This document shows, one piece after another, positions 1 to 39,039 of a stretch of 64,000 nucleotides of DNA. A model generated the notes under the pieces. The model worked only from the letters and a program-made list of their open reading frames with translations. It ran no database searches and was not told where the DNA came from. Position 1 is the first letter of the stretch. The number at the start of each line of letters is the position of its first letter. The position numbers were made by a program, and so were the translations under genes. Source of the DNA: Squalus acanthias (taxonomy: Eukaryota); contig CM059431.1 of the NCBI GenBank assembly GCA_030390025.1, positions 124,250,001 to 124,314,000 of the forward strand. The letters are read 5' to 3'.

Positions 1-428
1 TTTAGCTTGACAGATCGTACGAAGCTGCAGGAAATGGACATTCGCTGGTGGAGAGTTGGGCAATTTGCCCAATTACTGCCTAGAGAATGCCCACAAAACT
101 CTTACACCTGGTAAAAGCAGGCGTAAGGCCTATTTTTACCAGTGTAAGTGTTTAAATAAATATTAAATTAACATTTTTAAAATCATTTAAACATTCGAAA
201 ACCTATAAAATTAGTTTAGGTTATTTTTGGCCCTTTAAAAAATGTTTAAATTTATTTTTAAAAAAATGAAATTTTTGTTTTAAATGTTTAATTAAATTGC
301 ATTTTAATTAATTTTTAACATAGGATGATTTATTTTTATTTAAGTGGGGTGAAAGAGTATTTTTTATGTGATTCCTATTAAACTTATGGGGATTTCGTAA
401 GTAAATGGAATCCCCATAACCTTAATGG
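1..428. mobile_element. Left part of a non-autonomous TIR element (MITE, probably PHIS/Harbinger-type) interrupted by provirus A
   Basis: AT-rich MITE-like body. The imperfect palindrome starting at ~370 (gattcctattaa...ttaatgg|gaatc) is completed across the provirus at 9669-9677. Confidence 0.6.
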
Positions 429-2029
429 TGTAGAATTCGCAATTATCGCGATTTCATTTTAATAAGGAGAAAACACAAGTTTCGTTCAAAACAGCTTTTA
501 TTTCAACGGAATGCTGTCAGGTTTAAATTAGACACAAGCAGCCTGTAAAATGGCCGCCGCACCGCGTGACAGAACATTCGAGACTTTTCGGCAGGCAGAC
601 AAGATGGCGTTCCAATAAACATTTTTGCAGGATCGATAACGATTCAGCACAGTGAAGACATTACACAGGACATTATGGGTTTACAGTATAAACATCGATA
701 CTGGAATCGGTCTCCCAGGTACAAAGGAAAGCCATCAAGGGCCCATCCAAAGGACATTAATATGTAAACTCCCAACGGCTCTACGATGAGAGAGCCGTTA
801 GCAGGTAGTTATACAGGACACTTGGAAGCCCCAAACCCCTCCAGGGGGAACACCGACCGATTTAACAATGGGAGAAGTATTAGCAGGTACTCAAACATTC
901 AGGAGTAGCCCCGAAACCCATTAAAGACAGAGATCACCCTTACAGGACTTTTTGGGCGCCAAACCTTAAACAAAAGAATGGACATTATAGTTGGGCGGGA
1001 AACGGAAGAACTGTGCACTATAATTGCAGGCCCAAACCGTCCATTCTGTCTCTTGACTCTTGATTCTTGCTCCTGCCTCGTGTTCGTGACTCTTGCCGCT
1101 TGCTGCTGTTATCATCGTGGCTGCTCCTGGGTAAAAGACTGTTGCAAAGACCTATGTTGGTAGCTGGCAGCGGAACCGAAGGCCCGGGATGAGATGAGAT
1201 GAGATGAGATGAGATGAGAGGAGAAGAGAAGAAGACCTTATCCATCGCCACGGTCAGTAAATCCCGACCGCGCCTGTAGGTCGATCAGCCAAGTCTTCTT
1301 GACAGGAAGTTCTCTTCTTTAACAAAACATATTGCATCGATGATAACTGGACTGTGCAAACACATCGTATCAGCGATATTGACAACGGTGCTCCACCATA
1401 CCCTGTATCCAACCAACAGAGGTCTTCACTACAGCGGACGGTCCAGCCGACTGACCGAGCAGCAGAAGCAGTAAACAAGTGGGACCAGGAGATCTCCTGA
1501 CCAACACGTGGGTGCTGCGGTGAAAAACATCCGATCAGCTATTCGGGATTTCTCCGAGTTATTACGAGTGGTGAGCATGAGTCTCGGGATCCTACGAAGC
1601 TAGTTTTAGGATAGTTATTGATAGGGGAGGGTTGAAAGTTTAAGGATATTTGTAATGTGTGCCCTATTTACGTTGTGCTGGTCGTTCCTCGTTTCCCTAA
1701 GAGTGATTATAACTGTTTGTAAGATTGTACTGTCATTCATCTGTGCATATGACATGTATTTCATAATTTTAAGTATCATGCAATAAAGATTTTCCATTTC
1801 GTACCGTTCAAACCAAGTCTACATGAGTTTTATCTCCATTACTGCTCTCGCATCTAAGTCCAGTGTCTAGAACCGTAAGGGAGAGTGATTCGAACCACTC
1901 ACAGGGGTGTCTAGTGTTCCCAGACTGGCTGGAGACCAGGCCTAGACCCGCACTGACATACAGGCTGCACAGAGCCGCGTGAACCTCACAGGCCACGAGA
2001 CACGCAGGGTCAGGAGAGTATCCCTTACA
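429..2029 (+). repeat. 5' LTR of provirus A (1601 bp)
   Basis: Starts TGTAGAATTCGC, ends TATCCCTTACA. Repeated at 8068-9668 (offset 7639) with identical ORF-track translations. AATAAA at 1782-1787; (GAGAT)n at ~1187-1217. Confidence 0.97.
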
Positions 2030-2033: not shown

Positions 2034-3845
2034 ATGGCGACCGCGGCACGAGACTGGCAGCGAGAGGGTAGTGTGTTAGATTTTGGAATGACTGTACGAA
2101 ATGTTATGCAGGAAAAGATAGCGGATTACGTGTTTGGAAAGGTTAATCTAACGAAAAAGTGGATAAGCGAACTGTTAGCGGATAAGAGCCCACTAGAGGC
2201 AGCTGAAAGGTGGACGGATAGTAAGGAGCATAAAAAGGCAGTTGAGAAAGCAGTCTGGCTTATGTGCTACAAAAGGCAGGTCCAGATTTCTAACCAGACC
2301 AATACAGCGCTAACCGCTCGAATCAAGCAGTTAGAGGAGGAAATGGAGGAGAAGGTTTCTGGAGGGGAGGTGCTCATTAAGAGTTTAAATGAGTTACGCC
2401 AGGAAAGCCAGGAAGTCTCCAGCTACCTTAAAACAAGGGTAGAGTATCTCGAGTGCCAGATCACTGAAGCAAAATTAAACGAGAATAGGATGAAGGAAAG
2501 ATGTAACCGTCAAGCTGCCCAGATAAGAACTCAAGAAGAGAGCTTAATGGGGGTTAGGTCGGCGTATAAGTTGGCCCTTGAGGATAAGTTTCAGGGAGCC
2601 GACCATAGCGCCTGCGAAAAAGAGATAGAGAGCCTCAAAAAGGCCGTGAATAATGCGAACGGCATGGTGTGCCTTATTAATCCGTCGGCACGCCAGCCGC
2701 TAGTAAATGAGAGATTTAGAAATTCCCCACCAAGTAAAGCAGAAGAGGTAGTAGCCACTGCGCCCTCCGCGCCACCCAGCTATTCAGAAACCTGGGTTAG
2801 GGAGGAAGCAACGGAAGAAGCGAAAGAGCCCGTTGAAAAAGAGGTAGAAAAGGGATCGTTGTATCCAGTAACGGGGATTAAAAGGGGCCCAAGCAGAAAC
2901 GGTGGGGAAGAACCGGGGGATCTCCTCGGACAGCTGGTGTTGCCTCACAGTTCACATCAGCTGAGGGCCATGATAAACCACGTAAGGAAGCTGACCGAGA
3001 TAGACGACCCTTCCGTACATTTTAGGGAAGTTGAGCAAGCCGCAGCCATCAACGGCTGCGATGATGGGGAGACAGCAAAAATGCTGCTGTTCTCGTTAGA
3101 TAGCTCGGTCCTTCAGTGTCTCTCAGGCGATAGCAAGAGGGGAAACAAAAGTTATGAGGAATTGAAAAATGAGGTCCTAGAAGTAGTGGGAGCGAACGAC
3201 GGAGGTCCGTTTGCTAGAGTGGGACAGACAGTGCAGATGGAGGGAGAACCCCCGAAGGTTTTTGCCGACAGGCTGTGGCCAGTATATGAGCGCAGCTGTC
3301 TAGGTGCGCCCGAGCGCGAAGATGTGGAAGGCGCCGCTTTAATTCATTGGCTTAGGTGCATAATAGCCAACAGTTTACCAGCCGTTAGAGAGCAGGCAAA
3401 AGCCTGGTTCGATCCCAATGACCTCAACCTTACGGAAGAGTCGGTCTTGAATCGACTCACGTTAGGTTACCGTAACATAAGGGGTATGGCAACACGTCCC
3501 TTTAAGGGAAGAGTACATGAGGTACGACCCGCAGCCCCGGCTCAAAGAGAGTGGCATCAGGAGGGTAATCGCGCCCCACCGGCAAGCAATGCCTGTTACG
3601 GGTGTGGGAAGACAGGGCACTGGCGCAAGCACTGCAGGAACCCTTGGAAGGATTCCAAGGATAAGAATCCCGCGGTCCGAGCCCAGGCGCCTGTCCCGGC
3701 TAAGGAAGCAAAGGTACCCACCTCTCCCGAAGACCTCGAAGCAGTGTTAGGAGTCATGCGCAAGATGGTTTTAAATGCGCGTGGACAGGTGGCGGTCGCA
3801 ACCGGCCCCGTAGGTGCCGCAGGACCGTCTAATAGTACCCAATGA
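2034..3845 (+). CDS. gag: Gag (603 aa): N-terminal coiled coil, PSAPPSY late domain, capsid-like region, CCHC zinc knuckle
   Basis: Intact ORF directly after the LTR; CYGCGKTGHWRKHC at 3594-3635; about 98% aa identity to 35401-37212. Confidence 0.93.
   Translation: MATAARDWQREGSVLDFGMTVRNVMQEKIADYVFGKVNLTKKWISELLADKSPLEAAERWTDSKEHKKAVEKAVWLMCYKRQVQISNQTNTALTARIKQLEEEMEEKVSGGEVLIKSLNELRQESQEVSSYLKTRVEYLECQITEAKLNENRMKERCNRQAAQIRTQEESLMGVRSAYKLALEDKFQGADHSACEKEIESLKKAVNNANGMVCLINPSARQPLVNERFRNSPPSKAEEVVATAPSAPPSYSETWVREEATEEAKEPVEKEVEKGSLYPVTGIKRGPSRNGGEEPGDLLGQLVLPHSSHQLRAMINHVRKLTEIDDPSVHFREVEQAAAINGCDDGETAKMLLFSLDSSVLQCLSGDSKRGNKSYEELKNEVLEVVGANDGGPFARVGQTVQMEGEPPKVFADRLWPVYERSCLGAPEREDVEGAALIHWLRCIIANSLPAVREQAKAWFDPNDLNLTEESVLNRLTLGYRNIRGMATRPFKGRVHEVRPAAPAQREWHQEGNRAPPASNACYGCGKTGHWRKHCRNPWKDSKDKNPAVRAQAPVPAKEAKVPTSPEDLEAVLGVMRKMVLNARGQVAVATGPVGAAGPSNSTQ
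2035..2052 (+). promoter_or_regulatory. Primer-binding site, probably tRNA-Arg(UCG), overlapping the gag start codon
   Basis: TGGCGACCGCGGCA begins after a 5-nt gap (GAAAA) following the LTR. The consensus with copy B (TGGCGACCGCGGCAGGAC) matches the complement of the vertebrate tRNA-Arg-TCG 3' end as I recall it; not checked by search. Confidence 0.75.
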
Positions 3846-5006
3846 CTAGAGCCCACGCAGCCTGCCTACCTGTGTCCTTTTAAAAGACACGCACAGGAGG
3901 GGGTCTGCGGTGAGGAGGCCAGGTTAAAAGAGCAGGCCTTGCGGGAGGAGAACGCCCGCTTAATAGAGAAAATAGATGGGCTGGAAGGGCAGCTTAGAGA
4001 GCAGACCCTGCGGGAGGAGAACGCCCGATCAATGGGAAAGTTAGACGTGCTCAGGCTAGAAGAGCAGCTTAGAGAGATAAAAGCAGCCTACAGGGTAGCC
4101 AAAAGCAGGGAGTATGAGTATTTAAAACAGGATAGAAATCTGCAGCCTCCAGCAGGTGAGATTTCACAGAAACAAGCAGGGGCGGTGGCCTGTCTTAAGG
4201 GAGGGGCCAGACCTGCGAGTGGGGAAGCACAGCCCCAGGTAGGACCACAAGGCACACAGGCAGGCATAGCAGCTTGCATCAGGGGAAGGGACATCCCGGA
4301 CGATCATGCAGCGTTTTTCTGGAGTTGGGGGTTAGATGACGAGGACCCCAGGGTACCCTGGTCAGATGAGGATAGTGCAGATGAGCATAGTGATGATGAC
4401 GGGTGGTTTCACAGGAACGGTCTGGAAGGATTGGGGCCGCTAGGTAGAGATCCATACGGGGTGGACACACAAGCTGCAGGTCCCGACAGCAGGAGGAAGG
4501 AGCTAGAGGAGGCCGGGCCAGCCGCTATGTGGTTCCCAGAGGTGTGGCCGCCCGCTTTGAACGTCCAGTCCTCGGGGGAGGCAGAGTTCGCGAGTGAAGG
4601 GCCGCCTGCTGGGCCGAGCAGGGCGGGGCCCCGAACTGCCAGCCCCGAGGTTAGGGAGGAGGAGTCAGCGGAGGCGGGGCTGGCGCCTGTGATGGAACCC
4701 CAGGTCATCCCGTTGAAGGTCTCGGGACCCGGTCCGTCCGTCACGGAGCCCCCGCCCATAGCAATTCCCCGTAGGTCAAGCAGAGTACCCCAGCCCAGGA
4801 AGACGTGGTCAGGTCCACAGGCTGCCCCAGGGCGTAAGTTTCAGGTTAAGATAACCCGGGTAGAGACAGGCCACATCGAGGCAGTAACAGGCTGCGGCAG
4901 ATCAGAGGAAAGGGTCAGCGCAGCAACAGGCTGCGGCAAATCAGAGGGAAGGGTCAGTGCCCTCCCACCGTCGGGAAGAGCTCGCAGCAGCCTTCTCAGG
5001 ATTTAA
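3846..5006 (+). CDS. ORF X: in-frame continuation past the gag UGA. First ~10 Pol residues, then a ~115-aa Gag-like coiled coil, then the Pol/IN C-terminal tail (predicted 990-aa Gag-X readthrough product)
   Basis: Open and in frame with gag (3939-2034 is divisible by 3; no stop in 3846-3938). The C-terminal ~260 aa align with the end of copy B Pol. No PR, RT, RH or IN motifs. Confidence 0.8.
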   Translation, partial: LEPTQPAYLCPFKRHAQEGVCGEEARLKEQALREENARLIEKIDGLEGQLREQTLREENARSMGKLDVLRLEEQLREIKAAYRVAKSREYEYLKQDRNLQPPAGEISQKQAGAVACLKGGARPASGEAQPQVGPQGTQAGIAACIRGRDIPDDHAAFFWSWGLDDEDPRVPWSDEDSADEHSDDDGWFHRNGLEGLGPLGRDPYGVDTQAAGPDSRRKELEEAGPAAMWFPEVWPPALNVQSSGEAEFASEGPPAGPSRAGPRTASPEVREEESAEAGLAPVMEPQVIPLKVSGPGPSVTEPPPIAIPRRSSRVPQPRKTWSGPQAAPGRKFQVKITRVETGHIEAVTGCGRSEERVSAATGCGKSEGRVSALPPSGRARSSLLRI

Positions 5007-5288: not shown

Positions 5289-7640
5289 ATGGAACGACTT
5301 CTAGTTTTGCTCGTGGCAATCGGATGTGGATTGGCCTATCGGGGCCTCACCAAGGATGTCGTGGTGTTTGGATGTTCCGGGGACACGGCCCCCATCGCGG
5401 TGGATGGGACCGGGAGACGGAAGGCAGAAGGGACCAGCACCTATTTCCACAAGGGAAGGTGGCCAGGATGGCTGGGAACGAACTCAACGGAGTATTCCAG
5501 CACATCGGGGTTCGCCTACAAAGAGACTTCTTTAATGTGCCCCAAAGTACGGATCATCGCACCCAGGATCAGCGTCACCGTCGGCAAACGGATTTGTTTG
5601 ACTTGCAGTGGGAATGTCCCATTGAGCCGATGGTGGTGGCTGCGAAAGCTGAGCAAAACTATGAGGAACTCTTCGGTCGAGTGGGAGCGACTGGGTAATA
5701 ATACCCATCGGACAATTACGGGGACAGATGGACAAGTGAAAGTCTGTTGGGACAAATGGTGGGAACCAGATGAGGGGATTTATGTTTGTATGTGGGGGTC
5801 AAAGTACGTTTGCCCCAAAGGCATCTCCATATTCTTTATTAACCAGTGGCAGGATAACGGACAGGGGATGAGGTGGGATGCGAGCACCAGGGGGTGCGGA
5901 GCCCCATTCTCCCCGATCCCAGTAAATGCCACTGAGCTCATTACGCGCCCACGCAAAGCCCCGCCCACGATTCCGGTAGTTCTAACTGAGGAAGAAGGGT
6001 GCCCTAAAACTAGTAAGGGACCCGGGAACGGTTTGGTACTGGTCCCCACAGACCAGATACTATTTCAGGGAGTGCATTACGCGGTGGCCTCGGTGATTTT
6101 AAATCTCACTGAGGTACGGTTACCAGAGTGGTGCCCCAAAAAGACGGAACAGTTGTACCAGGTCCTGTTGACCAAGATGTTCAGGCAGTTTTACGAGTTC
6201 GATTTCGCGGAAATTGATAAGACAAGTTTATACACCGCACCGCAGGAAGTTTTGGATCAAGTTGGGAGGCAAAGAAGGGGTTTGGTGAACGATGCGTTCA
6301 CTGCTTTTAACACAGGGACATCTGTGGTCAACGCTCTAGACAGTGTGGAGCTGCAGACCCAGATTAATGGTTTAAAAACACAGTTAAAGGATATTCTCAC
6401 GGATGAGAATAAAGTGGTAGGGTCGGGTCTGCACGAGGACCAAGCCATGACACTACACTTAAAAGAGATTATAGCAGAGCTGGAGAAACATGCGCGTACG
6501 GTAAATGCCCTGATTAGGGAAGATCGGAATGCATCCGATCAAGCTGCGCAGAACGAGGTGTGCGTGCTTTACGGGGCGTGGTTACTGGGCGAGGGCCGCA
6601 GTAATTTGGAGGATTTAAAACAAGGTTTGGTCCCGTCCTGGATAAGTAACAAACACCTGCGGGCGCTCCACCCTTTTCAGAATGCATTAAGTCCGTGCCA
6701 GCTCAGGCTAGCTTCAGAAGCTTACCCAGTCCCCGTGGACTGCGGACGTTCAAACCATACTATTATGGGAATAGTATTACGCATGCCGGTTTTGGGCAAC
6801 ACAGCAAAGCCCGCCCCGGTGTATCGGGTAGAGAACATTGGTGTCATTCAGGGGGGAGCCCACATTCGTTATGCAGCGGTTCCACCTTACGTCATCCGCT
6901 GGGAGCAAACGATGACAGGTACAGATCTCTCTGGTTGTCGTGGCAGGGGAGCACACATAATACTGTGCCCCCAGCACTTGAATGCCTTTTTAACACCACA
7001 GTGCGGGTTCAGAACGGCTGGCGCCAAGTCCATGAATTGCACCATGGAGGCAATGGCACAAGATCATGTGCCTCCGCAGGTAGCATACATCGGGGGTGGA
7101 ACATATTGTGTTACCACTGCAGCGCAACACTACCAGCATGGAAACCGTAGCCGGTGTCCGGTGAGTGACAGCAGTTTCTGTTTTAAACCCAGGGCTGAAG
7201 TTCAAGTAGCACAACAGCGAATTATCCCAATCCCTGAACCATCCACTGTTCACCTCACAGTAAAAGAGAATTTTACCGACTTGCAGCGTTTTGTCGCACA
7301 TTTTGGGTACCTCATTCCCCCTCTCCCCGAGCATTTAACCAAACTTCTGAAAGCCGTCGCGGTGTCACAAAAGCATTTCTATACTTTAGAACAGAAAACC
7401 GTCGAGATAGGTACAGACATTTTGGACATAGTGGTTCCACCGTGGTGGAATCTGTTCACGAATATTGAAGTGCCCTCATGGGTCAGAATAGCCTCCCACA
7501 TTTTAGTCGTCTGTCAAGTGTTTATTGTAGTATACCTTTTGTTTATACATTGTAAAAGAGACAAGCGCCTCACCAAGCATGAGAACACGGGAGAGTGGCG
7601 AGAACGTTACGTGCGCGTGCACGATGAGAGCGCAGTGTAA
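5289..7640 (+). CDS. env: Env-like class I fusion glycoprotein (783 aa): signal peptide, Ig-like domain, furin site RQRR, heptad repeat, Cys-rich region, TM, cytoplasmic tail
   Basis: Hydrophobic N-terminus; RQRR|GLVNDAFTAF at 6267-6278 followed by heptads; several NxS/T sites; TM ILVVCQVFIVVYLLFI; position before the 3' LTR; candidate acceptor ...tctgatcacag at 5275. Confidence 0.9.
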   Translation: MERLLVLLVAIGCGLAYRGLTKDVVVFGCSGDTAPIAVDGTGRRKAEGTSTYFHKGRWPGWLGTNSTEYSSTSGFAYKETSLMCPKVRIIAPRISVTVGKRICLTCSGNVPLSRWWWLRKLSKTMRNSSVEWERLGNNTHRTITGTDGQVKVCWDKWWEPDEGIYVCMWGSKYVCPKGISIFFINQWQDNGQGMRWDASTRGCGAPFSPIPVNATELITRPRKAPPTIPVVLTEEEGCPKTSKGPGNGLVLVPTDQILFQGVHYAVASVILNLTEVRLPEWCPKKTEQLYQVLLTKMFRQFYEFDFAEIDKTSLYTAPQEVLDQVGRQRRGLVNDAFTAFNTGTSVVNALDSVELQTQINGLKTQLKDILTDENKVVGSGLHEDQAMTLHLKEIIAELEKHARTVNALIREDRNASDQAAQNEVCVLYGAWLLGEGRSNLEDLKQGLVPSWISNKHLRALHPFQNALSPCQLRLASEAYPVPVDCGRSNHTIMGIVLRMPVLGNTAKPAPVYRVENIGVIQGGAHIRYAAVPPYVIRWEQTMTGTDLSGCRGRGAHIILCPQHLNAFLTPQCGFRTAGAKSMNCTMEAMAQDHVPPQVAYIGGGTYCVTTAAQHYQHGNRSRCPVSDSSFCFKPRAEVQVAQQRIIPIPEPSTVHLTVKENFTDLQRFVAHFGYLIPPLPEHLTKLLKAVAVSQKHFYTLEQKTVEIGTDILDIVVPPWWNLFTNIEVPSWVRIASHILVVCQVFIVVYLLFIHCKRDKRLTKHENTGEWRERYVRVHDESAV

Positions 7641-25430: not shown

Positions 25431-26170
25431 GGATAGGTATTCTTATTTATTATGTAATCCTCAAATCAGTAAGATTCTTATACATTGAATATCAGGTATC
25501 ATAGATTTATTAAATATACAGCACATGTATAATAGTACTTAAACATACACTGAAAATATAGACCTAGAAATTGGATATAGCCATGAAATGGACAGTGTTA
25601 AGGCCAAACGATGTTAAGCTGCACCACCTGAAAATGGTCTAGGTAGCCTGCAAAATTTGTGCTCACTCTTCATTAACATGTCATGATTTCAGCTTTAAAG
25701 CTGATGCTCATTGGCTTAACGCTCAACAGTTTAATTCAGTCATGTTTGCCGCAGGGCAGTTGGGTTTTCAGCTGCCCCAACAACCAGAAGTTCAAGGACA
25801 AGCAAGAGTTCTGTACACATAGCAGATTGTCGTACCAGAGAGAGAGCCAGGAGGTTCTCTGATGAAGCTCTAGAGGCACTCGTAGTGGCTGTGGAGAGGA
25901 GGTGGGATATCCTCTACCTGCAAAGTGGCAGAAAGCCCTCGCCCTATATGTCCCGTACCATGTGGTAGGAGATAGCGGACTATGTGACAGCCAGCACTGT
26001 GGTGACACAGTCCGCCATCCAGTGCAGGAAGAAGTTTAATGACCTCACAAGGTGGTCAAGGTGAGTGAAGGCTTCAGAAAATGCCATATCCCACCATCTG
26101 CACCACAAGCCTCACACACTGCTCAATGCACCACACCCCCAGCACTCACCTACCAACAATCTCTACCTTT

Positions 26171-27815
26171 TGTAAGGGATTCTCTCCTGACCCTGCGTGT
26201 CTCGTAGCCTGTGAGATTCACGCGGCTCTGTGCAGCCTGTATGTCAGTGCGGGTCTAGGCCTGGTCTCCAGCCAGTCTGGGAACACTAGACACACCTGTG
26301 AGTGGTTCGAATCACTCTCCCTTACGGTTCTAGACACTGGACTTAGATGCGAGAGCAGTAATGGAGATAAAACTCATGTAGACTTGGTTTGAACGGTACG
26401 AAATGGAAAATCTTTATTGCATGATACTTAAAATTATGAAATACATGTCATACGCACAGATTAATGACAGTACAATCTTACAAACGGTTATAATCACTCT
26501 TAGGGAAACGAGGAACGAACGGCACAACGTAAATAGGGCACACATTACCAATATCCTTAATCTTTACACCCTCCCCTATCAATATCTATCCTAAACTAGC
26601 TTCGTAGGATCTCGAGACTCATGCTCACCACTCGTAATAACTCGGAGAAATCCCGAATAGCTGATCGGATGTTTTTTACCGCAGCACCCACGTGTTGGTC
26701 AGGAGATCTCCTGGTCCCACTTGTTTACTGCTTCTGCTGCTCGGCCAGTCGGCTGGACCGTCCGCTGTAGTGAAGACCTCTGTTGGTTGACTTCACAGTT
26801 TAGTTGAGGAACACCGTTGTCAATATCACTGATACGATGTGTTTACACAGTCCAGTTATCATTGATGCAATATGTCTTGTTAAAGAAGAAAACTTCCTGT
26901 CGAGAAGACTTGGCTGATCGACCTACAGGCGCGGTCGGGATTTACTGACCGTGGCGATGGATAAGGTCTTCTTCTCTTCTCCTCTCATCTCATCTCATCT
27001 CATCTCGGGCCTTTGGTTCCGCTGCCAGTTACCAACATAGGTCTTCTTTACGCGACACGAGGTAGATCCGAACGGATCAGAAAGTTCAACAGTCTTTTAC
27101 ACAGGAGCAGCCACGAGGTTACGAATCGACCGGATAAAACACAGGAGCAGCCACGATGATAACAGCAGCAAGCGAGCAAGAGGCAAGAGTCAAGAGAGCG
27201 AATGGACGGTTTGGGGCCTGCAATTATAGTGCGAAAATCTTCCGTTTCCCGCCCAACTATAATGTCCATTCTTTTGTTTAAGGTTTGGCGCCCAAATGTC
27301 TTGTGTGGGTGATCTCCGTCCTTAATGGGTTTCGGGGCTACTCATGAATGTTTGAGTACCTGTTAATACTTCTCCCATTGTTAAATCGGTCGGTGTTCCC
27401 CCTGGAGGGGTTTGGGGCTTCCAAGTGTCCTGTATAACTACCTGCTAACGGCTCTCTCATCGTAGAGCCGTTGGGAGTTTGCATATTAATGTCCTTTGGA
27501 TGGGCCCTTGATGGCTTTCCTTTGTACCTGGGAGACCGATTCCAGTATCGATGTTTATACTGTAAACCCATAATATCTCGTGTATTATCTTCACTGTGCT
27601 GAATCGTTATCGATCCTGCAAAAATGTTTAATGGAACGCCATCTTGTCTGCCTGTTGAAAAGTCTAGAATGTTCTGTCACGAGGTGCGGCGGCCATTTTA
27701 CAGGCTGCTTGTGTCCAATTTAAACCTGACAGCATTCTGCTGAAATAAACGCTGTTTGAACGAAACTTTGTGTTTTCTCCTTATTAATCAAATCGTGATA
27801 ATTGCGAATTCTACA
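26171..27815 (-). repeat. 3' LTR of provirus B (1645 bp)
   Basis: Direct repeat of 37217-38861 (offset 11046); identical ORF-track translations. Confidence 0.97.
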
Positions 27816-28373
27816 GTCCCTCCTGTTGATGCGAATAACTCCGCTTATCGTATCAAAACTCTCAGTGGTGAGCAATCTTATCTCGATTTCACTCCGAATC
27901 CAGTAAATTAATCCCATAAATTTTAACTTAACTAGGGTCTCTGTGTCGTCCTTATTTCCCAAGAAAATCACATTTTATATCACCATAGGCATCATTTGCC
28001 CTTAAACTTACACCACTTGTTTTCCTTCCCGGCGTAACCAGGCCGATACCTCACGCATCACCTGTATATTTGTCTTTTATTCAGGGAAAGGAAAAACAAA
28101 ACCCAAAACCAAACAATCAACACCATCACCAAAATAAAACAAATCCCAACTCTTAAACATATCGAGTTTCCAACGTATTTACAATGAGTACAAACTTCCG
28201 CGGCGCACGTGGCGAGCGGGAGTGACGCCATTTTCCTATTACACGGTACTCTCGTCGTGCACGCGCACGTAACGTTCTCGCCACTCTCCCGTGTTCTCAT
28301 GCTTGGTGAGGCGCTTGTCTCTTTTACAATGTATGAACAATAGGTATACTACAATAAACACTTGACAGACGAC

Positions 28374-30590
28374 TCAAATGTGGGAGGCTATTCTGACCCA
28401 TGAGGGTACTTCAATATTAGTGAACAGATTCCACCACGGTGGAACCACTATGTCCAAAATGTCTGTTCCAATTTCGACGGTTTTCTGTTCTAATGTATAA
28501 AAATGCTTTTGTGACACCGCGACGGCTTTCAGAAGTTTGGTTAAATGCTCAGGGAGAGGGGGAATGAGGTATCCAAAATGCGCGACAAATCGCTGCAAGT
28601 CGGTGAAATTCTCTTTTACTGTGAGATGAACAGTGGATGGTTCAGGGATTGGGATAATTCGCTGTTGTGCTACTTGAACTTCAGCCCTGGGTTTAAAACA
28701 GAAACTGCTGTCACTCACCGGACACCGGCTACGGTTTCCATGCTGGTAGTGTTGCGCTGCAGTGGTAACACAATATGTTCCACCCCCGATGTATGCTACC
28801 TGCGGAGGCACATGATCTTGTGCCATTGCCTCCATGGTGCAATTCATGGACTTGGCGCCAGCCGTTCTGAACCCGCACTGTGGTGTTAAAAAGGCATTCA
28901 AGTGCTGGGGGCACAGTATTATGTGTGCTCCCCTGCCACGACAACCAGAGAGATCTGTACCTGTCATCGTTTGCTCCCAGCGGATGACGTAAGGTGGAAC
29001 CGCTGCATAACGAATGTGGGCTCCCCCCTGAATGACACCAATGTTCTCTACCCGATACACCGGGGCGGGCTTTGCTGTGTTGCCCAAAACCGGCATGCGT
29101 AATACTATTCCCATAATAGTATGGTTTGAACGTCCGCAGTCCACGGGGACTGGGTAAGCTTCTGAAGCTAGCCTGAGCTGGCACGGACTTAATGCGTTCT
29201 GAAAAGGGTGAAGCGCCCGTAGGTGTTTGTTACTTATCCAGGACGGAACCAAACCTTGTTTTAAATCCTCCAAATTACTGCGGCCCTCGCCCAGTAACCA
29301 CGCCCCGTAAAGCACGCACACCTCGTTCTGCGCAGCTTGATCGGATGCATTCCGATCTTCCCTGATCAGGGCATTTACCGTACGCGCATGTTTCTCCAGC
29401 TCTGCTATAATTTCCTTTAAATGGAGAGTCATGGCTTGGTCCTCATGCAGACCCGACCCTACCACTTTATTCTCATCTGTTAGAATGTCTTTTAACTGTG
29501 TTTTTAAACCATTAATCTGGGTCTGCAGCTCCACACTGTCTAGAGCGTTGACCACAGATGTCCCTGTGTTAAAAGCAGTGAACGCATCGTTCACCAAACC
29601 CCTTCTTTGCCTCCCTACTTGATCCAAAACTTCCTGCGGTGCGGTATACAAACTTGTCTTATCAATTTCTGCAAAATCAAACTCGTAAAATTGTCTGAAC
29701 ATCTTGGTCAACAGGACCTGATACAACTGTTCCGTCTTTTTGGGGCACCACTCTGGTAACCGTACCTCAGTGAGATTTAAAATCACCGAGGCCACCGCGT
29801 AATGTACCCCCTGAAATAGTATCTGGTCTGTGGGGACCAGTACCAAACCGTTCCCGGGTCCCTTACTAGTTTTAGGGCACCCTTCTTCCTCAGTTAGAAC
29901 CACCGGAATTGTGGGCGGGGCTTTGCGTGGGCGCGTAATGAGTTCAGTGGCATTTACTGGGATCGGGGAGAATGGGGCTCCGCACCCCCTGGTGCTCGCA
30001 TCCCACCTCATCCCCTGTCCGTTATCCTGCCACTGATTAATAAAAAATATGGAGATGCCTTTGGGGCAAACGTACTTTGACCCCCACATACAAACATAAA
30101 TCCCCTCATCCGGTTCCCACCATTTGTCCCAACAGACTTTCACTTGTCCGTTTGTCCCCGTAATTGTCCGATGGGTATTATTACCCAGTCGTTCCCACTC
30201 GACCGAAGAGTTCCTCATAGTTTTGCTCAGCTTTCGCAGCCACCACCATCGGCTCAATGGGACATCCCCACTACAGGTCAAACAAATCCGTTTGCCGACG
30301 GTGACGCTGATCCTGGGTGCGATGATCCGTACTTTGGGGCACATTAAAGAAGTCTCCTTGTAGGCGAACCCCGATGTGCTGGAATACTCCGTTGAGTTCG
30401 TTCCCAGCCATCCTGGCCACCTTCCCTTGTGGAAATAGGTGCTGGTCCCCTCTGCCTTCCGTCTTCCGGTCCCATCCACCGCGATGGGGGCCGTGTCCCC
30501 GGAACATCCAAACACCACGACATCCTTGGTGTGGCCTCGATAGGCCAATCCACATCCGATTGCCACGAGCAATACTAGAATTCGTTCCAT
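28374..30590 (-). CDS. env: Env (738 aa), truncated by TTA>TGA at the start of the TM helix; the downstream frame stays intact to ...RYVRVHDESTV*
   Basis: Differs from copy A Env at only 4 aa that I could find (L4I, L20H, N109D, D147N); CAC ATT TGA GTC here versus CAC ATT TTA GTC in A. Confidence 0.9.
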   Translation of the reverse strand: MERILVLLVAIGCGLAYRGHTKDVVVFGCSGDTAPIAVDGTGRRKAEGTSTYFHKGRWPGWLGTNSTEYSSTSGFAYKETSLMCPKVRIIAPRISVTVGKRICLTCSGDVPLSRWWWLRKLSKTMRNSSVEWERLGNNTHRTITGTNGQVKVCWDKWWEPDEGIYVCMWGSKYVCPKGISIFFINQWQDNGQGMRWDASTRGCGAPFSPIPVNATELITRPRKAPPTIPVVLTEEEGCPKTSKGPGNGLVLVPTDQILFQGVHYAVASVILNLTEVRLPEWCPKKTEQLYQVLLTKMFRQFYEFDFAEIDKTSLYTAPQEVLDQVGRQRRGLVNDAFTAFNTGTSVVNALDSVELQTQINGLKTQLKDILTDENKVVGSGLHEDQAMTLHLKEIIAELEKHARTVNALIREDRNASDQAAQNEVCVLYGAWLLGEGRSNLEDLKQGLVPSWISNKHLRALHPFQNALSPCQLRLASEAYPVPVDCGRSNHTIMGIVLRMPVLGNTAKPAPVYRVENIGVIQGGAHIRYAAVPPYVIRWEQTMTGTDLSGCRGRGAHIILCPQHLNAFLTPQCGFRTAGAKSMNCTMEAMAQDHVPPQVAYIGGGTYCVTTAAQHYQHGNRSRCPVSDSSFCFKPRAEVQVAQQRIIPIPEPSTVHLTVKENFTDLQRFVAHFGYLIPPLPEHLTKLLKAVAVSQKHFYTLEQKTVEIGTDILDIVVPPWWNLFTNIEVPSWVRIASHI

Positions 30591-30876
30591 CCTTCCTTGG
30601 TTCCTGTGATCAGATAGAATGAGGTAGCCAGCCTCGCAAAAAGGTCTCTGGCTGTTGTGAAGGGTGAGCGGGTCCCCTGACCTCGCCTCACGTAAACTTC
30701 AACGTTTGCTGAATAGACTTCCTCTAAACCTAGCCTTAAAACTCCCATCATTTTATCGTTTTCTGTTAAAAACACTACAAACTTAGCCTTATTAAAACTA
30801 CAAACTTAACCTTGAACTAAAACTTAAAACTTAAAACTAAAACTTTACAGTGCCGCCCGTTCTCAGGGCGGCCCCT

Positions 30877-33800
30877 TTAAATTCTGAGAAGGCTGCTGCG
30901 AGCTCTTCCCGACGGTGGGAGGGCACTGACCCTTCCCTCTGATCTGCCGCAGCCTGTTGCTGCGCTGACCCTTTCCTCTGATCTGCCGCAGCCTGTTACT
31001 GCTTCGATGTGGCCTGTCTCTACCCGGGTTATCTTAACCTGAAACTTACGCCTTGGGGCAGTCTGGGGACATGACCACATCCTCCTGGGCTGGGGTTCTC
31101 TACTAGACCTACGGGGAGTTGCTATGGGCGGGGGTTCCGTGACGGACGGACCGGGTTCCGAGACCTCCAACGGGACGACCTGGGGTTCCATCACAGTCGC
31201 CGACTCCGCCTCCGCTGACTCCGCCTCCCTAACCCCGGGGCTGGCATTTCGTGGCTCCGCCCTGCTCGGCCCAGCAGGCGGCCCTTCACTCGTGATCTCT
31301 GCCTCCCCTGAGGACTGGACGTTCAAAGCGGGCGGCCACACCTCTGGGAACCACATTGGTACTCTCTGTGCTCCTATAGCGGCTGGCCCCGCCTCCTCTA
31401 GCTCCTCCCTCCTGTACTCGGGACCTGCAGCTTGTGTGTCCACCCCGTGTGGATCTCTACCTATCGGCCCCAATCCTCCCAGACCGTTCCTCCGGAACCA
31501 CCCGTCATCATCACTATGCTCATCTGCACTATCCTCATCTGACCAGGGTACCCTGGGTTCTTCGTCATCTAACCCCCAACTCCAGAAAAACGCTGCATGA
31601 TCGTCCGGGATGTCCCTTCCCCTGATGCAAGCTGCTACGCCTGCCTGTGTGCCTTGTGGTCCTACCTGGGGCTGTGTTTTCCCATTGGCGGGATTTACCC
31701 CTGTAGTTTTCCCCTGCGCACCCGGCTGGTACAGTTTGCATTGGTTTATGTGGAACCACTTAGTGCGCCGAGGTACTTTTACGGCGTAAACCATGGGACT
31801 CGCCTTGTCTACAATGTTGTAGGGTCCCATATACAGTGGTTCCAGACTCCCTACTCTGGCGTAGTTTCTGACCATGACCTGGTCTCCTACTTCCCACTCC
31901 CGCGTTTTGCGGGGTTCCAGCAACAAGCGATTGCCCTGATGCTGCCTTCCCATGTTCCCAGCCGCCTGCTCATAAACTTGCTTCAGGCGCTCCAAGAGAG
32001 TTTGGGCGAACTTGTCCCTGCTGATCTCTTGAAGCTGACCCTCAGTGAGCACCGGGGCTAGCACATGGGTGGGGGTTCGCATGAGCCTGCCGGTCATTAC
32101 CTCGTGCGGGGAGTACCCCGTACTTTTTGACTGACTGGCCCGGACCCCCATGAGGACTAAAGGCAGAACTTCCGCCCATTTTTGGGGCGAGTTCCTAGTC
32201 TCTTTCCTCAATTTCTCCTTCAGGGTCCGGTTCATACGTTCAACAATCCCGGATGACTGGGGATTGTGTGCTACGTGCCACTTCCCTTCAATGCCCAAAA
32301 GCATGAGGGTGTTCTGCATCACCTGGCCGGTGAAATGACTCCCTTGGTCTGACTCCACGAAACGGGGGAGTCCCCACCGCGAGAACACTTCCCGGACCAA
32401 GATTTTTGCTGTACCCAGTGCCGTAGCTGTTCGACAAGGGAAGGCTTCCACCCACTTGGAAAACACATCCACCAGGACGAGGCAGTACTTATAACCTCCC
32501 TGGGTGGTGGGCAGGGGTCCTATATAGTCGATCTGTATCGACTGCCATGGTCCCTCTACCCTTCTTACGTGTCCCATGGGCACCTTCCTTTTCTGGGGGT
32601 CTGGGTTGTTTGCAGCGCACACAAGACAGTTAGCGCAGAACTCGCGGACTTGTTCCCTGAGCCCTGGCCACCATCCCGCTTGCTCTACCCGTTGCCAGGT
32701 AACCTCGGGCCCGGGGTGCCCTGCCCCTGGTCCCTCGTGAGCCAACTGGAGGAATTCCCTCCTGTGCTGCTGCGGCACAACCCACTGCTCCCCGCGGAAC
32801 AGCATGCCTTCCTTAACTGAGAGGGTTGCCGTACTGTACGGACCTTCTACCTGCCTCCCCTCAGCAATCGTTTTTAGGACTGCTTTTAGGGCGGGATCCT
32901 GGGCTTGGACGGTCTTAAGGTCTAGGGGCAATGCTACCCTGGTGTTCCCGGTATTCCCGTCCCCACCTCGGACCGCTGCTATGGGTCCGGTCCTATAGGG
33001 GTTCCAGAAAATACCGTCTCGGGCACCCTCCCTGGCTAGCGCATCCGCCTGCCGGTTGCCCTCCCCACGGGGCTCTGTGGAGGAGTGAGCTTTCACCTTA
33101 TGGATGAAAATCTCCCCTTCCTCCCCTACTGCTGCTGCTAAGATCTTTTCCAGCAAGGGCTTCACCGTTAAAGGTCGCCCGTCCGCGGAGGTGTATCCGC
33201 GGCGGGACCAAATGGCCAGGTATTCCGTACACGAATTGCAGGTGAACATACTGTCCGAGCAAATCGTGTATGGGGTTGGGAAAATGTCTGGGTGGGTCAC
33301 CACGTACACCACGGCAGACAGCTCAGCTTGCTGCGCGCTCATGGTGCTAGGGAGCTTGATCGCCAGGGCAAGGTCTGCCGCAGGGTCATAAACTCCACAC
33401 CCTGTGAGTCGCTCGCCAGCAGACACTGTGCTAGACCCATCAACATAAATCTCGCGCCCAGTGGGATGTATCCCGGCCCGTAAACCTATGTTGACGTCCC
33501 ACACCCCTTCCACCGAACACCGGTGGGCTGTACCGGGGTATACCAAATTGGCCGCAAGCCTGGGCTCGCAAAGACCTTTTACTCTAAGATCCAACTGGGA
33601 GAGAAGAAGGGTCCAACGCGCAATGCGTGCGCTGCTTACGGTCCCATCTTTAATCCTCCCATCCAGAAGCATCTTAGTTGGTGTGTGATGTGTGAGGAGA
33701 GTGATGGGAGAGAGCCCTGTGAAGATCGCTGATCTTTTCACAGCCCAATGCGTGGCTAAAAGGTGCCTTTCGCAATTGGAGAAACTTCTCTCCACATCCG

Positions 33801-35400
33801 CTAATACCCTGGATGAATAGACAACCGGCCTCAGCTTGCCGTGACGCTCTTGGAGCAGCACGGCGCTTAAGCTGTCTCCGCTGGCAGCTACCTCCAGGAA
33901 AAACTCCTTCCCCCCATCTATGGCCCCTAAGGCTGGCGCGGTCTGCAGATCCCTTTTTAACTTCTCGAAGGCTGCTTGGCAGCCCTCGTCCCAAAGCCAC
34001 TCCACCCCCTTATGGAGGAGTCGGAGGAGCGGCGCCGCTGTGGCCGCATAATCTTCGATAAAATCCCTGCAGTAACCGGTCAGTCCCAAGAAGGACCTCA
34101 CACCCCTTACGTTGTTGGGAATCGGTAATTCTTGCACCGACTCCCTCCTTGCTTTGTCTATGGCTCTTTCCCCAGCGCGTAGGGTCAGTCCCAGGAATTT
34201 TACTTCCTGCTGACCGATACGTGCTTTCTTTGGGTTTACTTTAAAACCCTTTCTCGCTAACAGCTCCAATAACTCGTCCAGTAGTGGTCCGTGCTCCTCC
34301 CTTGAGTCCGTAAATAGGAGCAAATCATCCACATACTGTACTATCTGATTGGGCTGACTAAACTCCTTTAAACTTCCTGCCATACACTGATGAAAAATAC
34401 TGGGGCTATTGTGGAAACCCTGTGGCAAACAGTTCCACGTGTACTGTTGCCCTTTAAACGTAAAGGCAAACTTGTACTGGTCCTCTCGCCGCAGCGGGAT
34501 GGACCAAAAACCGTTCGAGATATCCAGCACCGTGAACGTGGTCGCGGACGCTGGGATGCTCCCTATTAGGTCAGCAACTGCTGCTACTGTGGGCGCGCAG
34601 GCGGGAATGTTACTGTTAAGGACTCTGTAGTCCACCGTGGCTCTCCACGAATTATCCGGCTTCCTAACCGGCCATAATGGGGAGTTCACGTGTGTGGCTA
34701 TCGGCCTCAACACGCCCTGCTGCACCAAGGAAGACATTGCTGCCTCCATATCGGGTTCTGCTTCTTTGGGGAAGTTATACTGCTTTTGGGGTCGGGTCAT
34801 GGGGTCCCCATCTACGCTGACCTCAAACCCGACCACCCTCCCACAATCGTGCTTGTGGGTTGCAAACGCGTGCATATTATCTGTCACGTACGTTTGCATG
34901 TCCGTTGGGACATCTGCGACCATAAGCCTGAGGTCGTAGCCTCCGGATGGCTGTACGGTACACAGGACCCCTGTTTCTTCCTCCCCTTGAATTACCATTA
35001 CCTCGCCTTTTTCACCTTTAGCCCCCCAGAGACAGTGATTTCTGAGGTCCACGAGGATCCCGTGTCCCGCTAGGAGATCGGACCCGAGAATACCTCTTCC
35101 ACCCCCCTTTTGCCATGCCATCAGGATACACTTCCACTTAAGGCGAAGTGTCCCTAAACGAATGGATAGCGGGAGGGAAAACGTGCCAGCCTGTTCTTTC
35201 CCTGTGAACCCTGCTAGCGTGAATGGGACCTTGGTAGATAGCGGCGAGTCAAAAGGGTCATCTGTATGGATTATGGTGCAAGAAGCTCCCGTGTCCAACA
35301 AATAACTGCCCTTCTGTTTCTCTACCTCCATCTCCACCACAGGTCGCCTCCACGCATCATAGCTAAGCGGACACAGGTAGACGGGCTGTGCTGGTTCTAG
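30877..35400 (-). CDS. pol: Pol: protease, RT, degenerate RNase H (tether), active RNase H, integrase, long low-complexity tail; in frame with gag after a single UGA
   Basis: LLDTGA (~35290); LPQGF and YVDD (~34330); FFLEVAAS...RPVVYSSR; IYVDGS/AQQAEL/CSDS/HKVKAH/GNRQAD; HHCC; QIDYIG/SDQG/VERMN; GPY. Confidence 0.96.
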   Translation of the reverse strand, partial: LEPAQPVYLCPLSYDAWRRPVVEMEVEKQKGSYLLDTGASCTIIHTDDPFDSPLSTKVPFTLAGFTGKEQAGTFSLPLSIRLGTLRLKWKCILMAWQKGGGRGILGSDLLAGHGILVDLRNHCLWGAKGEKGEVMVIQGEEETGVLCTVQPSGGYDLRLMVADVPTDMQTYVTDNMHAFATHKHDCGRVVGFEVSVDGDPMTRPQKQYNFPKEAEPDMEAAMSSLVQQGVLRPIATHVNSPLWPVRKPDNSWRATVDYRVLNSNIPACAPTVAAVADLIGSIPASATTFTVLDISNGFWSIPLRREDQYKFAFTFKGQQYTWNCLPQGFHNSPSIFHQCMAGSLKEFSQPNQIVQYVDDLLLFTDSREEHGPLLDELLELLARKGFKVNPKKARIGQQEVKFLGLTLRAGERAIDKARRESVQELPIPNNVRGVRSFLGLTGYCRDFIEDYAATAAPLLRLLHKGVEWLWDEGCQAAFEKLKRDLQTAPALGAIDGGKEFFLEVAASGDSLSAVLLQERHGKLRPVVYSSRVLADVERSFSNCERHLLATHWAVKRSAIFTGLSPITLLTHHTPTKMLLDGRIKDGTVSSARIARWTLLLSQLDLRVKGLCEPRLAANLVYPGTAHRCSVEGVWDVNIGLRAGIHPTGREIYVDGSSTVSAGERLTGCGVYDPAADLALAIKLPSTMSAQQAELSAVVYVVTHPDIFPTPYTICSDSMFTCNSCTEYLAIWSRRGYTSADGRPLTVKPLLEKILAAAVGEEGEIFIHKVKAHSSTEPRGEGNRQADALAREGARDGIFWNPYRTGPIAAVRGGDGNTGNTRVALPLDLKTVQAQDPALKAVLKTIAEGRQVEGPYSTATLSVKEGMLFRGEQWVVPQQHRREFLQLAHEGPGAGHPGPEVTWQRVEQAGWWPGLREQVREFCANCLVCAANNPDPQKRKVPMGHVRRVEGPWQSIQIDYIGPLPTTQGGYKYCLVLVDVFSKWVEAFPCRTATALGTAKILVREVFSRWGLPRFVESDQGSHFTGQVMQNTLMLLGIEGKWHVAHNPQSSGIVERMNRTLKEKLRKETRNSPQKWAEVLPLVLMGVRASQSKSTGYSPHEVMTGRLMRTPTHVLAPVLTEGQLQEISRDKFAQTLLERLKQVYEQAAGNMGRQHQGNRLLLEPRKTREWEVGDQVMVRNYARVGSLEPLYMGPYNIVDKASPMVYAVKVPRRTKWFHINQCKLYQPGAQGKTTGVNPANGKTQPQVGPQGTQAGVAACIRGRDIPDDHAAFFWSWGLDDEEPRVPWSDEDSADEHSDDDGWFRRNGLGGLGPIGRDPHGVDTQAAGPEYRREELEEAGPAAIGAQRVPMWFPEVWPPALNVQSSGEAEITSEGPPAGPSRAEPRNASPGVREAESAEAESATVMEPQVVPLEVSEPGPSVTEPPPIATPRRSSREPQPRRMWSCPQTAPRRKFQVKITRVETGHIEAVTGCGRSEERVSAATGCGRSEGRVSALPPSGRARSSLLRI

Positions 35401-37212
35401 TCATGGGGCACTATTAGACGGTCCTGCGGCACCTACGGGGCCGGTTGCGACCGCCACCTGTCCACGCGCATTCAAAACCATCTTGCGCATGACTCCTAAC
35501 ACTGCTTCGAGGTCGTCGGGAGAGGTGGGTGCCTTTGCTTCCTTAGGCGGGACAGGCGCCTGGGCTCGGACCGCGGGATTTTTATCCTTGGAATCCTTCC
35601 AAGGGTTCCTGCAGTGCTTGCGCCAGTGCCCTGTCTTCCCACACCCGTAACAGGCATTACTTGCCTGTGGGGCGCGATTACCCTCCTGATGCCACTCTCT
35701 TTGAGCTGGGGCTGCGGGTCGTACCTCATGTACTCTTCCCTTAAAGGGACGTGTCGTCATACCCCTTATGTTACGGTAACCTAACGTGAGTCGATTCAAG
35801 ACCGACTCTTCCGTAAGGTTGAGGTCATTGGGATCGAACCAGGCTTTTGCCTGCTCTCTAACGGCTGGTAAACTGTTGGCTATTATGCACCTAAGCCAAT
35901 GAATTAAAGCGGCGCCTTCCACATCTTCGCGCTCGGGCGCACCTAGACAGCTGCGCTCATATACTGGCCACAGCCTGTCGGCAAAAACCTTCGGGGGTTC
36001 TCCCTCCATCTGCACTGTCTGTCCTACTCTAGCAAACGGACCTCCGTCGTTCGCCCCCACTACTTCTAGGACCTCATTTTTCAATTCCTCATAACTTTTG
36101 TTTCCCCTCTTGCTCTCGCCTGAGAGACACTGAAGGACCGAGCTATCTAACGAGAACAGCAGCATTTTTGCTGTCTCCCCATCATCGCAGCCGTTGATGG
36201 CTGCGGCTTGCTCAACTTCCCTGAAATGTACGGAAGGGTCGTCTATCTCGGTCAGCTTCCTTACGTGGTTTATCATGGCTCTCAGCTGATGTGAACTGTG
36301 AGGCAACACCAGCTGTCCGAGGAGATCCCCCGGTTCTTCCCCACCGTTTCTGCTTGGGCCCCTTTTAATCCCCGTTACTGGATACAACGATCCCTTTTCT
36401 ACTTCCTTTTCAACGGGCTCTTTTGTTTCTTCCGTTGCTTCCTCCCTAACCCAGGTTTCTGAATAGCTGGGTGGCGCGGAGGGCGCAGTGGCTACTACTT
36501 CTTCTGCTTTACTTGGTGGGGAATTTCTAAATCTCTCATTTACTAGCGGCTGGCGCGCCGACGGATTAATAAGGCACACCATGCCGTTCGCATTATTCAC
36601 GGCCTTTTTGAGGCTCTCTATCTCTTTTTGGCAGGCGCTATGGTCGGCTCCCTGAAACTTATCCTCAAGGGCCAACTTATACGCCGACCTAACCCCCATT
36701 AAGCTCTCTTCTTGAGTTCTTATCTGGGCAGCTTGGCGGTTACATCTTTCCTTCATCCTACTCTCGTTCAATTTTGCTTCAGTGATCTGGCACTCGAGAT
36801 ACTCTACCCTTGTTTTAAGGTAACTGGAGACTTCCTGGCTTTCCTGGCGTAACTCATTTAAACTCTTAATGAGCACCTCCCCTCCAGAAACCTTCTCCTC
36901 CATTTCCTCCTCTAAATGCTTGATTCGAGCTGTTAGCGCTGTATTGGTCTGGTTTGAAATCTGAACCTGCCTTTTGTAGCACATAAGCCAGACTGCTTTC
37001 TCAACTGCCTTTTTATGCTCCTTACTATCAGTCCACCTTTCAGCTGCCTCTAATGGGCTCTTATCCGCTAACAATTCGCTTATCCACTTTTTAGTTAGAT
37101 TAACCTTTCCAAACACGTAATCCGCTATCTTTTCCTGCATCACATTTCGTACAGTCATTCCAAAATCTAACACACTACCCTCTCGCTGCCAGTGTCCTGC
37201 CGCGGTTGCCAT
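35401..37212 (-). CDS. gag: Gag (603 aa)
   Basis: Intact; CCHC knuckle; PSAPPSY; near-identical to 2034-3845. Confidence 0.94.
   Translation of the reverse strand: MATAAGHWQREGSVLDFGMTVRNVMQEKIADYVFGKVNLTKKWISELLADKSPLEAAERWTDSKEHKKAVEKAVWLMCYKRQVQISNQTNTALTARIKHLEEEMEEKVSGGEVLIKSLNELRQESQEVSSYLKTRVEYLECQITEAKLNESRMKERCNRQAAQIRTQEESLMGVRSAYKLALEDKFQGADHSACQKEIESLKKAVNNANGMVCLINPSARQPLVNERFRNSPPSKAEEVVATAPSAPPSYSETWVREEATEETKEPVEKEVEKGSLYPVTGIKRGPSRNGGEEPGDLLGQLVLPHSSHQLRAMINHVRKLTEIDDPSVHFREVEQAAAINGCDDGETAKMLLFSLDSSVLQCLSGESKRGNKSYEELKNEVLEVVGANDGGPFARVGQTVQMEGEPPKVFADRLWPVYERSCLGAPEREDVEGAALIHWLRCIIANSLPAVREQAKAWFDPNDLNLTEESVLNRLTLGYRNIRGMTTRPFKGRVHEVRPAAPAQREWHQEGNRAPQASNACYGCGKTGHWRKHCRNPWKDSKDKNPAVRAQAPVPPKEAKAPTSPDDLEAVLGVMRKMVLNARGQVAVATGPVGAAGPSNSAP
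37194..37211 (-). promoter_or_regulatory. Primer-binding site (tRNA-Arg-like) overlapping the gag ATG
   Basis: TGGCAACCGCGGCAGGAC after a 5-nt gap downstream of the 5' LTR end. Confidence 0.78.
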
Positions 37213-37216
37213 TTTC

Positions 37217-38861: not shown

Positions 38862-39039
38862 CTTTCACCACTCACACCTCACAATCAGAGCTTCACTTCA
38901 CCCTCACAACCTTGCCACTGCTGCACCATTCACACCCACATCTCACACCTTGCACACACTGACAGCTATTCAACTATGGCAGGCACATCACCCAACACAT
39001 TGTACCACACTCACTCACACACTTCTTTTTCTCTTGCAG

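Follow-up and report, generated by a model that had tools for sequence, protein, structure and literature searches.

In the IAP I-delta-1 elements of mice, an internal in-frame deletion fuses gag to the remaining part of pol by frameshifting, and elements with the deletion are more active than those without it. The same elements are mentioned for their cis effects in a study that, in the passages concerned, brings together bovine ERVK[2-1-LTR] D-type with C-type, ETn with MusD and recKoRV with KoRV-A, all non-autonomous endogenous retroviruses (ERVs) in which the centre of a provirus has been swapped (PMC10924933). Here we describe a related arrangement in Squalus acanthias, in a 64,000-nt stretch of DNA (GenBank assembly GCA_030390025.1, contig CM059431.1, positions 124,250,001 to 124,314,000, forward strand; hereafter the window) that holds two related proviruses, A and B. 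In A, an open reading frame that we call ORF X, or X, lies directly behind gag, where B has pol. Provirus A best fits a non-autonomous central-swap retrovirus that would use the enzymes of its full-length siblings, and it looks like a parasite of the full-length form that B represents. The Gag-X fusion encoded by its frame is probably a tolerated by-product of the deletion-replacement, with no role for which its particular sequence has been selected, because the sequence of X is free to change.

As in the central-swap ERVs, the central segment of a competent provirus has been replaced in A by unrelated sequence while the long terminal repeats (LTRs) and the gag and env flanks were kept, and the defective form is abundant beside the autonomous form in the same genome, with recent insertions. 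A differs from ETn, recKoRV and the bovine D-type in its constrained gag and env, in the retention of a readthrough cassette and in the open frame that occupies the place of pol. The D-type is described in part of the same study as being without functional genes (PMC10924933), whereas A keeps complete and constrained gag and env. Furthermore, the swap in A is in frame and has kept the recoding signal and the C-terminus of pol, hence the Gag-X fusion frame, and the replacing segment was not traced to an old retroelement; A would be mobilised in trans. With IAP I-delta-1, A shares an internal in-frame deletion that creates a fusion frame, but A has lost nearly all of pol and gained an orphan helical segment, and expression of the fusion would use stop-codon readthrough. 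A further comparison concerns some lokiretroviruses, in which, according to passages of PMC7947760, an N-terminal 'smc' coiled-coil region is fused to gag and Env resembles the paramyxovirus fusion protein PF00523. A and B are similarly ERVs of a non-mammalian vertebrate with an N-terminal coiled-coil region in Gag, but the Env signature of the lokiretroviruses was not found in them: Env had no match to PF00523 even at E values up to 10 and no sequence match in the PDB, and no Pfam family matched the Gag or Env of either provirus, zf-CCHC matching Gag only weakly (residues 520-535, the CCHC knuckle). The reverse transcriptase (RT) of B matched about equally well those of Ty3 (244 bits), a murine gammaretrovirus (238 bits) and foamy virus (217 bits) in the PDB, and the integrase is nearest that of foamy virus among solved structures. 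The sole database homologue of Gag (P0001; 588 aa, 49% identical over the N-terminal 260 residues) carries the NCBI name of an uncharacterised skate protein, which hints that this virus group lives in cartilaginous fishes.

Self-BLAST of the window places A at 429-9668 on the plus strand and B at 38862-26168 on the minus strand, and aligns them in two blocks, A 428-3877 with B 38862-35369 and A 4212-9669 with B 31692-26170. Gag and env are ~98% identical between the two proviruses, and the LTRs ~90.5%. Behind its gag stop, B has an open pol frame of 1507 codons (35400-30877) with protease, RT, RNase H and integrase domains followed by a tail of ~270 residues. A lacks 3.7 kb of this pol, the protease-RT-integrase region, and has ~0.3 kb in its place; a domain scan found none of the four enzyme domains in A and gave ORF X a single Pfam match, to the coiled coil of Rab11-FIP3, which is below threshold (17.3 bits against a cut-off of 31.9). 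The features that bear on the swap are the following.

2034..3845, plus strand: gag of A, 603 codons, with an N-terminal helical region, one CCHC knuckle and a TGA end
3843..3849, plus strand: leaky-stop context UGA-CUAG (TGA-CTAG)
3846..5006, plus strand: ORF X, 386 codons and a stop, following directly on the gag TGA and in frame with gag
3856..3909, plus strand: candidate readthrough-stimulator hairpin, 17 bp, 10 nt after the stop, shared with B
3916..4195, plus strand: orphan segment without a match in B, predicted helical hairpin (X residues 20-97)
3930..4073, plus strand: in-frame tandem duplication of EQxLREENAR units, 69 nt (3930-3998) and 75 nt (3999-4073)
4212..5006, plus strand: retained C-terminal Pol tail, 265 codons, equivalent to the last ~265 codons of B pol, predicted to be disordered
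4269..4409, plus strand: acidic/aromatic low-diversity patch, X codons 142-188
5289..7640, plus strand: env of A, an open frame of 783 codons with an RQRR cleavage motif and a C-terminal membrane anchor, omega (dN/dS) 0.02 against B
26168..38862, minus strand: provirus B, the full-length relative, with gag, pol, env and LTRs

The 334 nt of A that lie between the two aligned blocks (3878-4211) matched nothing in B or in the rest of the window by BLAST, tblastn or tblastx. The left edge of the unalignable segment is, however, at ~3913-3917 and not at 3877, because the first ~35 nt of the apparent insert are the 3′ arm of a hairpin that is present in B too; at the right edge, residual similarity to B begins at ~4196. 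In the retained tail, A and B differ by an in-frame 21-nt stretch (IGAQRVP), and X ends at exactly the stop codon of B pol. Being in one frame, Gag and X together comprise 990 residues. Several features of this locus had been proposed in a sequence-only reading, and the replacement of pol in frame, the duplicated LREENAR, the retained UGA-CUAG context, the in-frame indel in the tail and the 990-aa Gag-X frame are all borne out here. The gap in homology to B that it described is likewise present, with blocks ending at 3877 and resuming at 4212, and its left edge had to be moved.

The two units of the tandem duplication differ by 7 non-synonymous and 6 synonymous changes, corresponding to proportions of 0.13 (pN) and 0.39 (pS) and an apparent pN/pS of 0.34. 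Since this pS is far above the dS of ~0.07 between A and B, the duplication is older than the A family and evolved for some time like coding sequence; the segment thus had a long history before the family arose, which fits capture from pre-existing sequence. AlphaFold2, run with no alignment, predicted two helices with high confidence, at residues 20-60 and 65-97 of X (pLDDT 81-98), and gave low confidence from residue 111 onward (pLDDT below 50), which suggests that the tail of X is disordered. Contigs from four public runs, labelled with four different organisms, also cover the insert; they behave like DNA, and splice-like joints were not seen in them. One of these contigs (run X5) skips 93 nt within 3963-4057 and has 9 other letters there, leaving it a net 84 nt shorter and in frame, and it may represent a form with a single repeat unit.

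The A-type arrangement is present in very many near-identical copies. A search with the junction DNA of X returned 1495 first-look candidates in the 3.7-Gb genome, of which the 40 scored were 98-100% identical, and a search with the 111-aa insert returned 2704 candidates, of which the best 150 were scored and were all 94-100% identical, at distinct places; for comparison, a fragment of B pol gave 1451 candidates in the same genome. The LTR pairs of 11 A-type copies were compared, and all had diverged by only 0-0.43%, with 7 of the 11 pairs identical; a perfect 4-bp target duplication was likewise found in 7 of the 11 measured copies. These near-identical LTR pairs and 4-bp duplications mark the A-type insertions as recent and integrase-made. 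The ends of the window copy have the same character:

425..428, plus strand: target-site duplication ATGG, 5′ copy, with flanks TAATGG and ATGGGA (3′ copy at 9669-9672)
429..2029, plus strand: 5′ LTR of A, 1601 bp, with TG...CA ends and 0 mismatches against the 3′ LTR
8068-9668, plus strand: 3′ LTR of A, delimited by self-BLAST, identical to the 5′ LTR

The gag ATG stands 4 nt past the end of the 5′ LTR (window 2029-2050), so close that the primer-binding site has to extend into the opening codons of gag; a leader or packaging signal, if any, must lie inside the long LTR or in gag. Some A-type internal regions lie on the same strand at the distance of one provirus minus one LTR: two on C6, for example, are 7,659 bp apart and identical in the tree, and pairs on C2109, C1116 and C4 have a similar spacing of 7.6-7.8 kb. 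Such pairs suggest tandem proviruses with a common middle LTR.

Among 20 full-length A-type loci, the complete gag was open in 18 and the complete env in 13. The env frame of B, by contrast with its open pol, is interrupted in the window by one stop (28374-28376, minus strand) immediately before the membrane anchor. We considered a bipartite system in which A would supply env and B pol. This was rejected, as the stop is private to the window copy: none of the 18 further B-type copies recovered has it at that site, and in 17 of these the frame continues through the membrane anchor, while 1 breaks off earlier, elsewhere (2 of the 20 stretches taken did not match). The window appears to show an autonomous retrovirus beside its parasite, both very young and both in very many copies.

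The pattern of amino-acid change in X is the one expected in the absence of selection. We read 59 A-type copies, comprising the window's own, 18 junction-DNA loci after removal of one that duplicated a later locus, 20 full-length loci and 20 X-only loci, and took codon statistics from 39 copies for gag, X and env and from all 59 for X alone. Across the 39 copies, the 3′ part of gag has 58 non-synonymous (N) and 78 synonymous (S) variants and the 5′ part of env 14 N and 24 S, as opposed to 91 N and 36 S in X (Fisher p = 2e-7 for X against gag and env). Omega among A-type copies is 0.13-0.25 for gag and env, with gag at about 0.2, and gag variants seen only once also have a low omega, which indicates that they are mostly lineage variants shared with unsampled copies and do not represent decay after insertion. 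For X in the 59 copies, a mutation spectrum fitted to the frame itself predicts 107.2 N and 45.7 S variants, where 109 and 49 were observed, so that the missense/synonymous ratio is 0.95 of that expected; it is also the same as in the five other, non-coding frames of this stretch. The neutral ratio holds for the helical segment (23 N, 7 S) and for the mid-tail (57 N, 24 S) alike. The comparison of A with B agrees, with an omega of 0.14 for gag and 0.81 for the X tail. We also asked whether the region might hold another constrained frame, a candidate that was rejected, as the five other frames carry 5-22 stops and have N/S of 0.64-0.87.

The recoding cassette, in contrast to the X protein, is retained. 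UGA-CUAG is present in 58 of the 59 A-type copies and in all 16 B-type junctions recovered. According to part of PMC4132726, this context drives efficient readthrough in vertebrate cells, with OPRL1, OPRK1, AQP4 and MAPK10 as cases, and signals of the UGA-CUA class, described in part of PMC3159437 for alphaviruses and several plant viruses, have a stem 7-12 nt downstream of the stop. The cassette of A resembles these signals in having CUAG directly after UGA, a predicted stem 10 nt past the stop, within the range of 7-12 nt spacers, and a compensatory change between A and B. It differs from the alphavirus signal, an extended stem with a loop of at least 100 nt, in being a compact local hairpin of 17 bp with a 15-nt loop, and from the murine leukaemia virus pseudoknot in being predicted as a local hairpin. 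Between A and B, one of the 17 pairs has changed from GC to AU on both sides and four have changed on one side and can still pair (wobble-compatible); two are broken in B, and a third is broken only in two A-type variants. The predicted stability is -26.1 kcal/mol for A and -24.2 kcal/mol for B, and exchanging the arms between A and B gives chimeras that can still fold. Of 2000 random 3′ partners drawn from the element, no more than 23 were as stable as the A hairpin, which places it beyond 98.8% of random partners, and of 1010 X-derived ones, 33 were. Covariation in the hairpin is thin, with effectively two sequence types, and in an alignment-versus-shuffle comparison the sequence similarity to B of its 3′ arm and of the right junction zone was non-significant, so that it is the structure that argues for a hairpin common to A and B.

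These observations can be accommodated in a simple scenario. A would derive from the full-length retrovirus represented by B, of which it has kept the LTRs and the constrained gag and env, by exchange of the pol enzyme region for ~0.3 kb of orphan sequence that happened to be in frame. The exchange would have left intact the recoding cassette (UGA-CUAG and hairpin), the last 265 pol codons and the native pol stop. As A is without pol and B-type pol frames are open, new A copies would be made with sibling-supplied enzymes, and the success of the A family would most likely come from a shorter genome that still holds all cis signals together with Gag and Env. With the cassette, the open frame and the pol stop intact, readthrough ribosomes should make the 990-residue Gag-X at the low rate normal for Gag-Pol. 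The product would run from Gag through ~23 codons left from the start of pol and a ~75-residue helical hairpin into a disordered tail of ~270 residues. We note for annotation that an open frame alone is no ground for naming such a Gag-X a new viral protein. More broadly, A would constitute a natural experiment on which parts of a retrovirus must stay in cis if a hitch-hiking element is to succeed, and on whether readthrough has a role beyond Pol.

Several observations weigh against this scenario, some of which suggest that the X frame is more than a remnant. Eleven of the 20 full-length loci had been picked for a short or interrupted X frame; in the other 48 copies, which were unselected by frame status, X is open in 45 (17/19, 9/9 and 19/20 for the window and junction loci, the full-length loci and the X-only loci, respectively), as compared with 24 of 28 copies for the 3′ 1500 nt of gag. 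In the search table, 140 of the 150 best-scored copies have an open frame of at least 373 aa, one of which proved frameshifted; these 150 are the best-scoring of the 2704 candidates, a sample that itself calls for caution. Apart from a single TAG, X is broken only by +1 or -1 changes, which fall on a few hot spots, and carriers of the same frameshift are scattered over the tree without clustering, such that amplifying A-type lineages with a broken X, which we had considered as a candidate, were not shown. The X indels found in at least two copies are 21 nt long or are gains and losses of a 39-nt unit, all multiples of three, and the one private multi-base indel, a 15-nt deletion, is in frame, whereas the 282-nt spacer behind X has ~29 indel events that are mostly not multiples of three; the spacer is, however, AT-rich and slippage-prone, and the 39-nt unit changes are in frame by construction. 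True nonsense variants in X number 1 against 6.1 expected in the 59 copies (Poisson 0.016). Counted by reference context, there are 2 where 6.1 are expected (0.059), and the same depletion is seen in one of five control frames (0, with 3.5 expected), which weakens nonsense depletion as proof of selection on the frame; we regard the deficit as suggestive only. The acidic/aromatic patch has 9 variants against 19.4 expected (Poisson 0.007, with boundaries set after seeing the data), at an N:S of 4:5 against 57:24 for the mid-tail (Fisher 0.14). Finally, recombination with B-type copies, rather than selection on A, could account for part of the low omega that gag and env show among A-type copies. 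A frame that is kept while missense changes are free would be explained if X were selected for the act of its translation: readthrough ribosomes would strip UPF1 from the unspliced RNA behind the gag stop as they travel 1.16 kb to the native pol stop, and the genomic RNA would thereby be protected against nonsense-mediated decay, as reporter mRNAs are by readthrough. According to part of PMC5360307, ribosomes that read through a suppressed stop can displace UPF1 downstream of it and inhibit decay, an effect that is weaker with a longer 3′ untranslated region. Such selection would leave missense changes free, at the 0.95 of expected seen here, and would remove nonsense changes; it would also be consistent with shared X indels that are all in frame, with X frameshifts that are all terminal, with conservation of the cassette including a hairpin with a compensatory change, and with an X that ends at the B pol stop. 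We nevertheless consider this explanation unlikely, if worth keeping in view, as the nonsense deficit is weak by either counting method and matched in a control frame, most of the in-frame indels are changes of the 39-nt unit, and the RNA continues for more than 3 kb past the end of X. If it were true, part of the role of Gag-Pol readthrough in a retrovirus would be independent of Pol.

The sequence-only reading had instead taken the insert for a Gag-like coiled coil captured from a related element and held Gag-X to be under selection as a protein, possibly a particle-incorporated accessory or interfering factor. The open frame in 45 of 48 copies, the retained cassette and the confidently predicted helical hairpin are compatible with an adaptive protein, as are the pN/pS of 0.34 at which the repeat units diverged before the expansion and the low-diversity patch, and the N-terminal helical region in the Gag of this virus group makes a Gag-type source plausible in principle. 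The similarity to Gag did not hold up: the best BLASTP match of the insert to its own Gag has an E value of 2.0, and against a profile built from A Gag, B Gag and the database homologue (52% identical over the whole Gag) hhalign gave a probability of 0.4% (E 0.15), aligning only the 15-residue motif that had first suggested the resemblance. A word-indexed search found no relatives of the insert among longer proteins, phmmer gave 0 matches in 1.84 billion representatives, and the best score in the ESM Atlas was 0.86, below a meaningful level; the pol tail had no homologue in proteins of pol length. With the helical segment and mid-tail at the neutral ratio and X behaving like non-coding frames, selection for the protein is not supported by the variant counts or by the tail omega against B, and we hold an adaptive Gag-X to be doubtful at best; a dN/dS near 1, which the sequence-only reading had itself named as grounds for refutation, is what X shows at the amino-acid level. 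The great age of the segment relative to the A family fits the proposed capture; a donor, Gag or otherwise, was not found in these searches. Acutely transforming retroviruses carry gag-onc fusions, and the orphan segment could in the same style be a piece of a host gene gained by transduction, since pol has been lost and a foreign, coding-like segment stands in the gag frame, and since the repeat units have diverged so far at synonymous sites that an old coding history is indicated. This we judge very improbable, as the segment has no match to a host or other protein and the sole Pfam match of X is sub-threshold; DNA and protein searches of the dogfish's own genome returned A-type copies only, and as these saturated the searches, in which the best candidates alone were scored, a diverged host donor could escape. 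We thus retain the reading of Gag-X as a by-product of the swap in a non-autonomous provirus.

Two further features of the X region were observed. The stretch 4131-4268 (X codons 96-141), which spans the end of the orphan segment and the junction zone, has 14 variants in the 59 copies against 18.9 expected and contains a sequence resembling the splice-donor consensus, CAGGTGAGA, at 4153-4161, and a cis-acting RNA role for this stretch is possible. Over the pol tail, antisense open frames of 116 codons in A (4409-4759, minus strand) and 185 codons in B (31043-31600, plus strand) are present; the antisense frame has just 5 stops across X, with none gained among the 59 copies (0 against 3.5 expected), and its openness most likely reflects the purine-rich sense strand.

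Elsewhere in the window, 14423-15983 is 72-78% identical to parts of the A and B LTRs, with no gag, pol or env homology found nearby, and probably represents a solo LTR from a related but older family. Just outside the 5′ LTR of B lies a 42-nt tandem repeat of ~6 copies (39933-40233), and a G-rich low-complexity block of 600 nt (52209-52838) accounts for the strong swing in GC skew at 52-56 kb.

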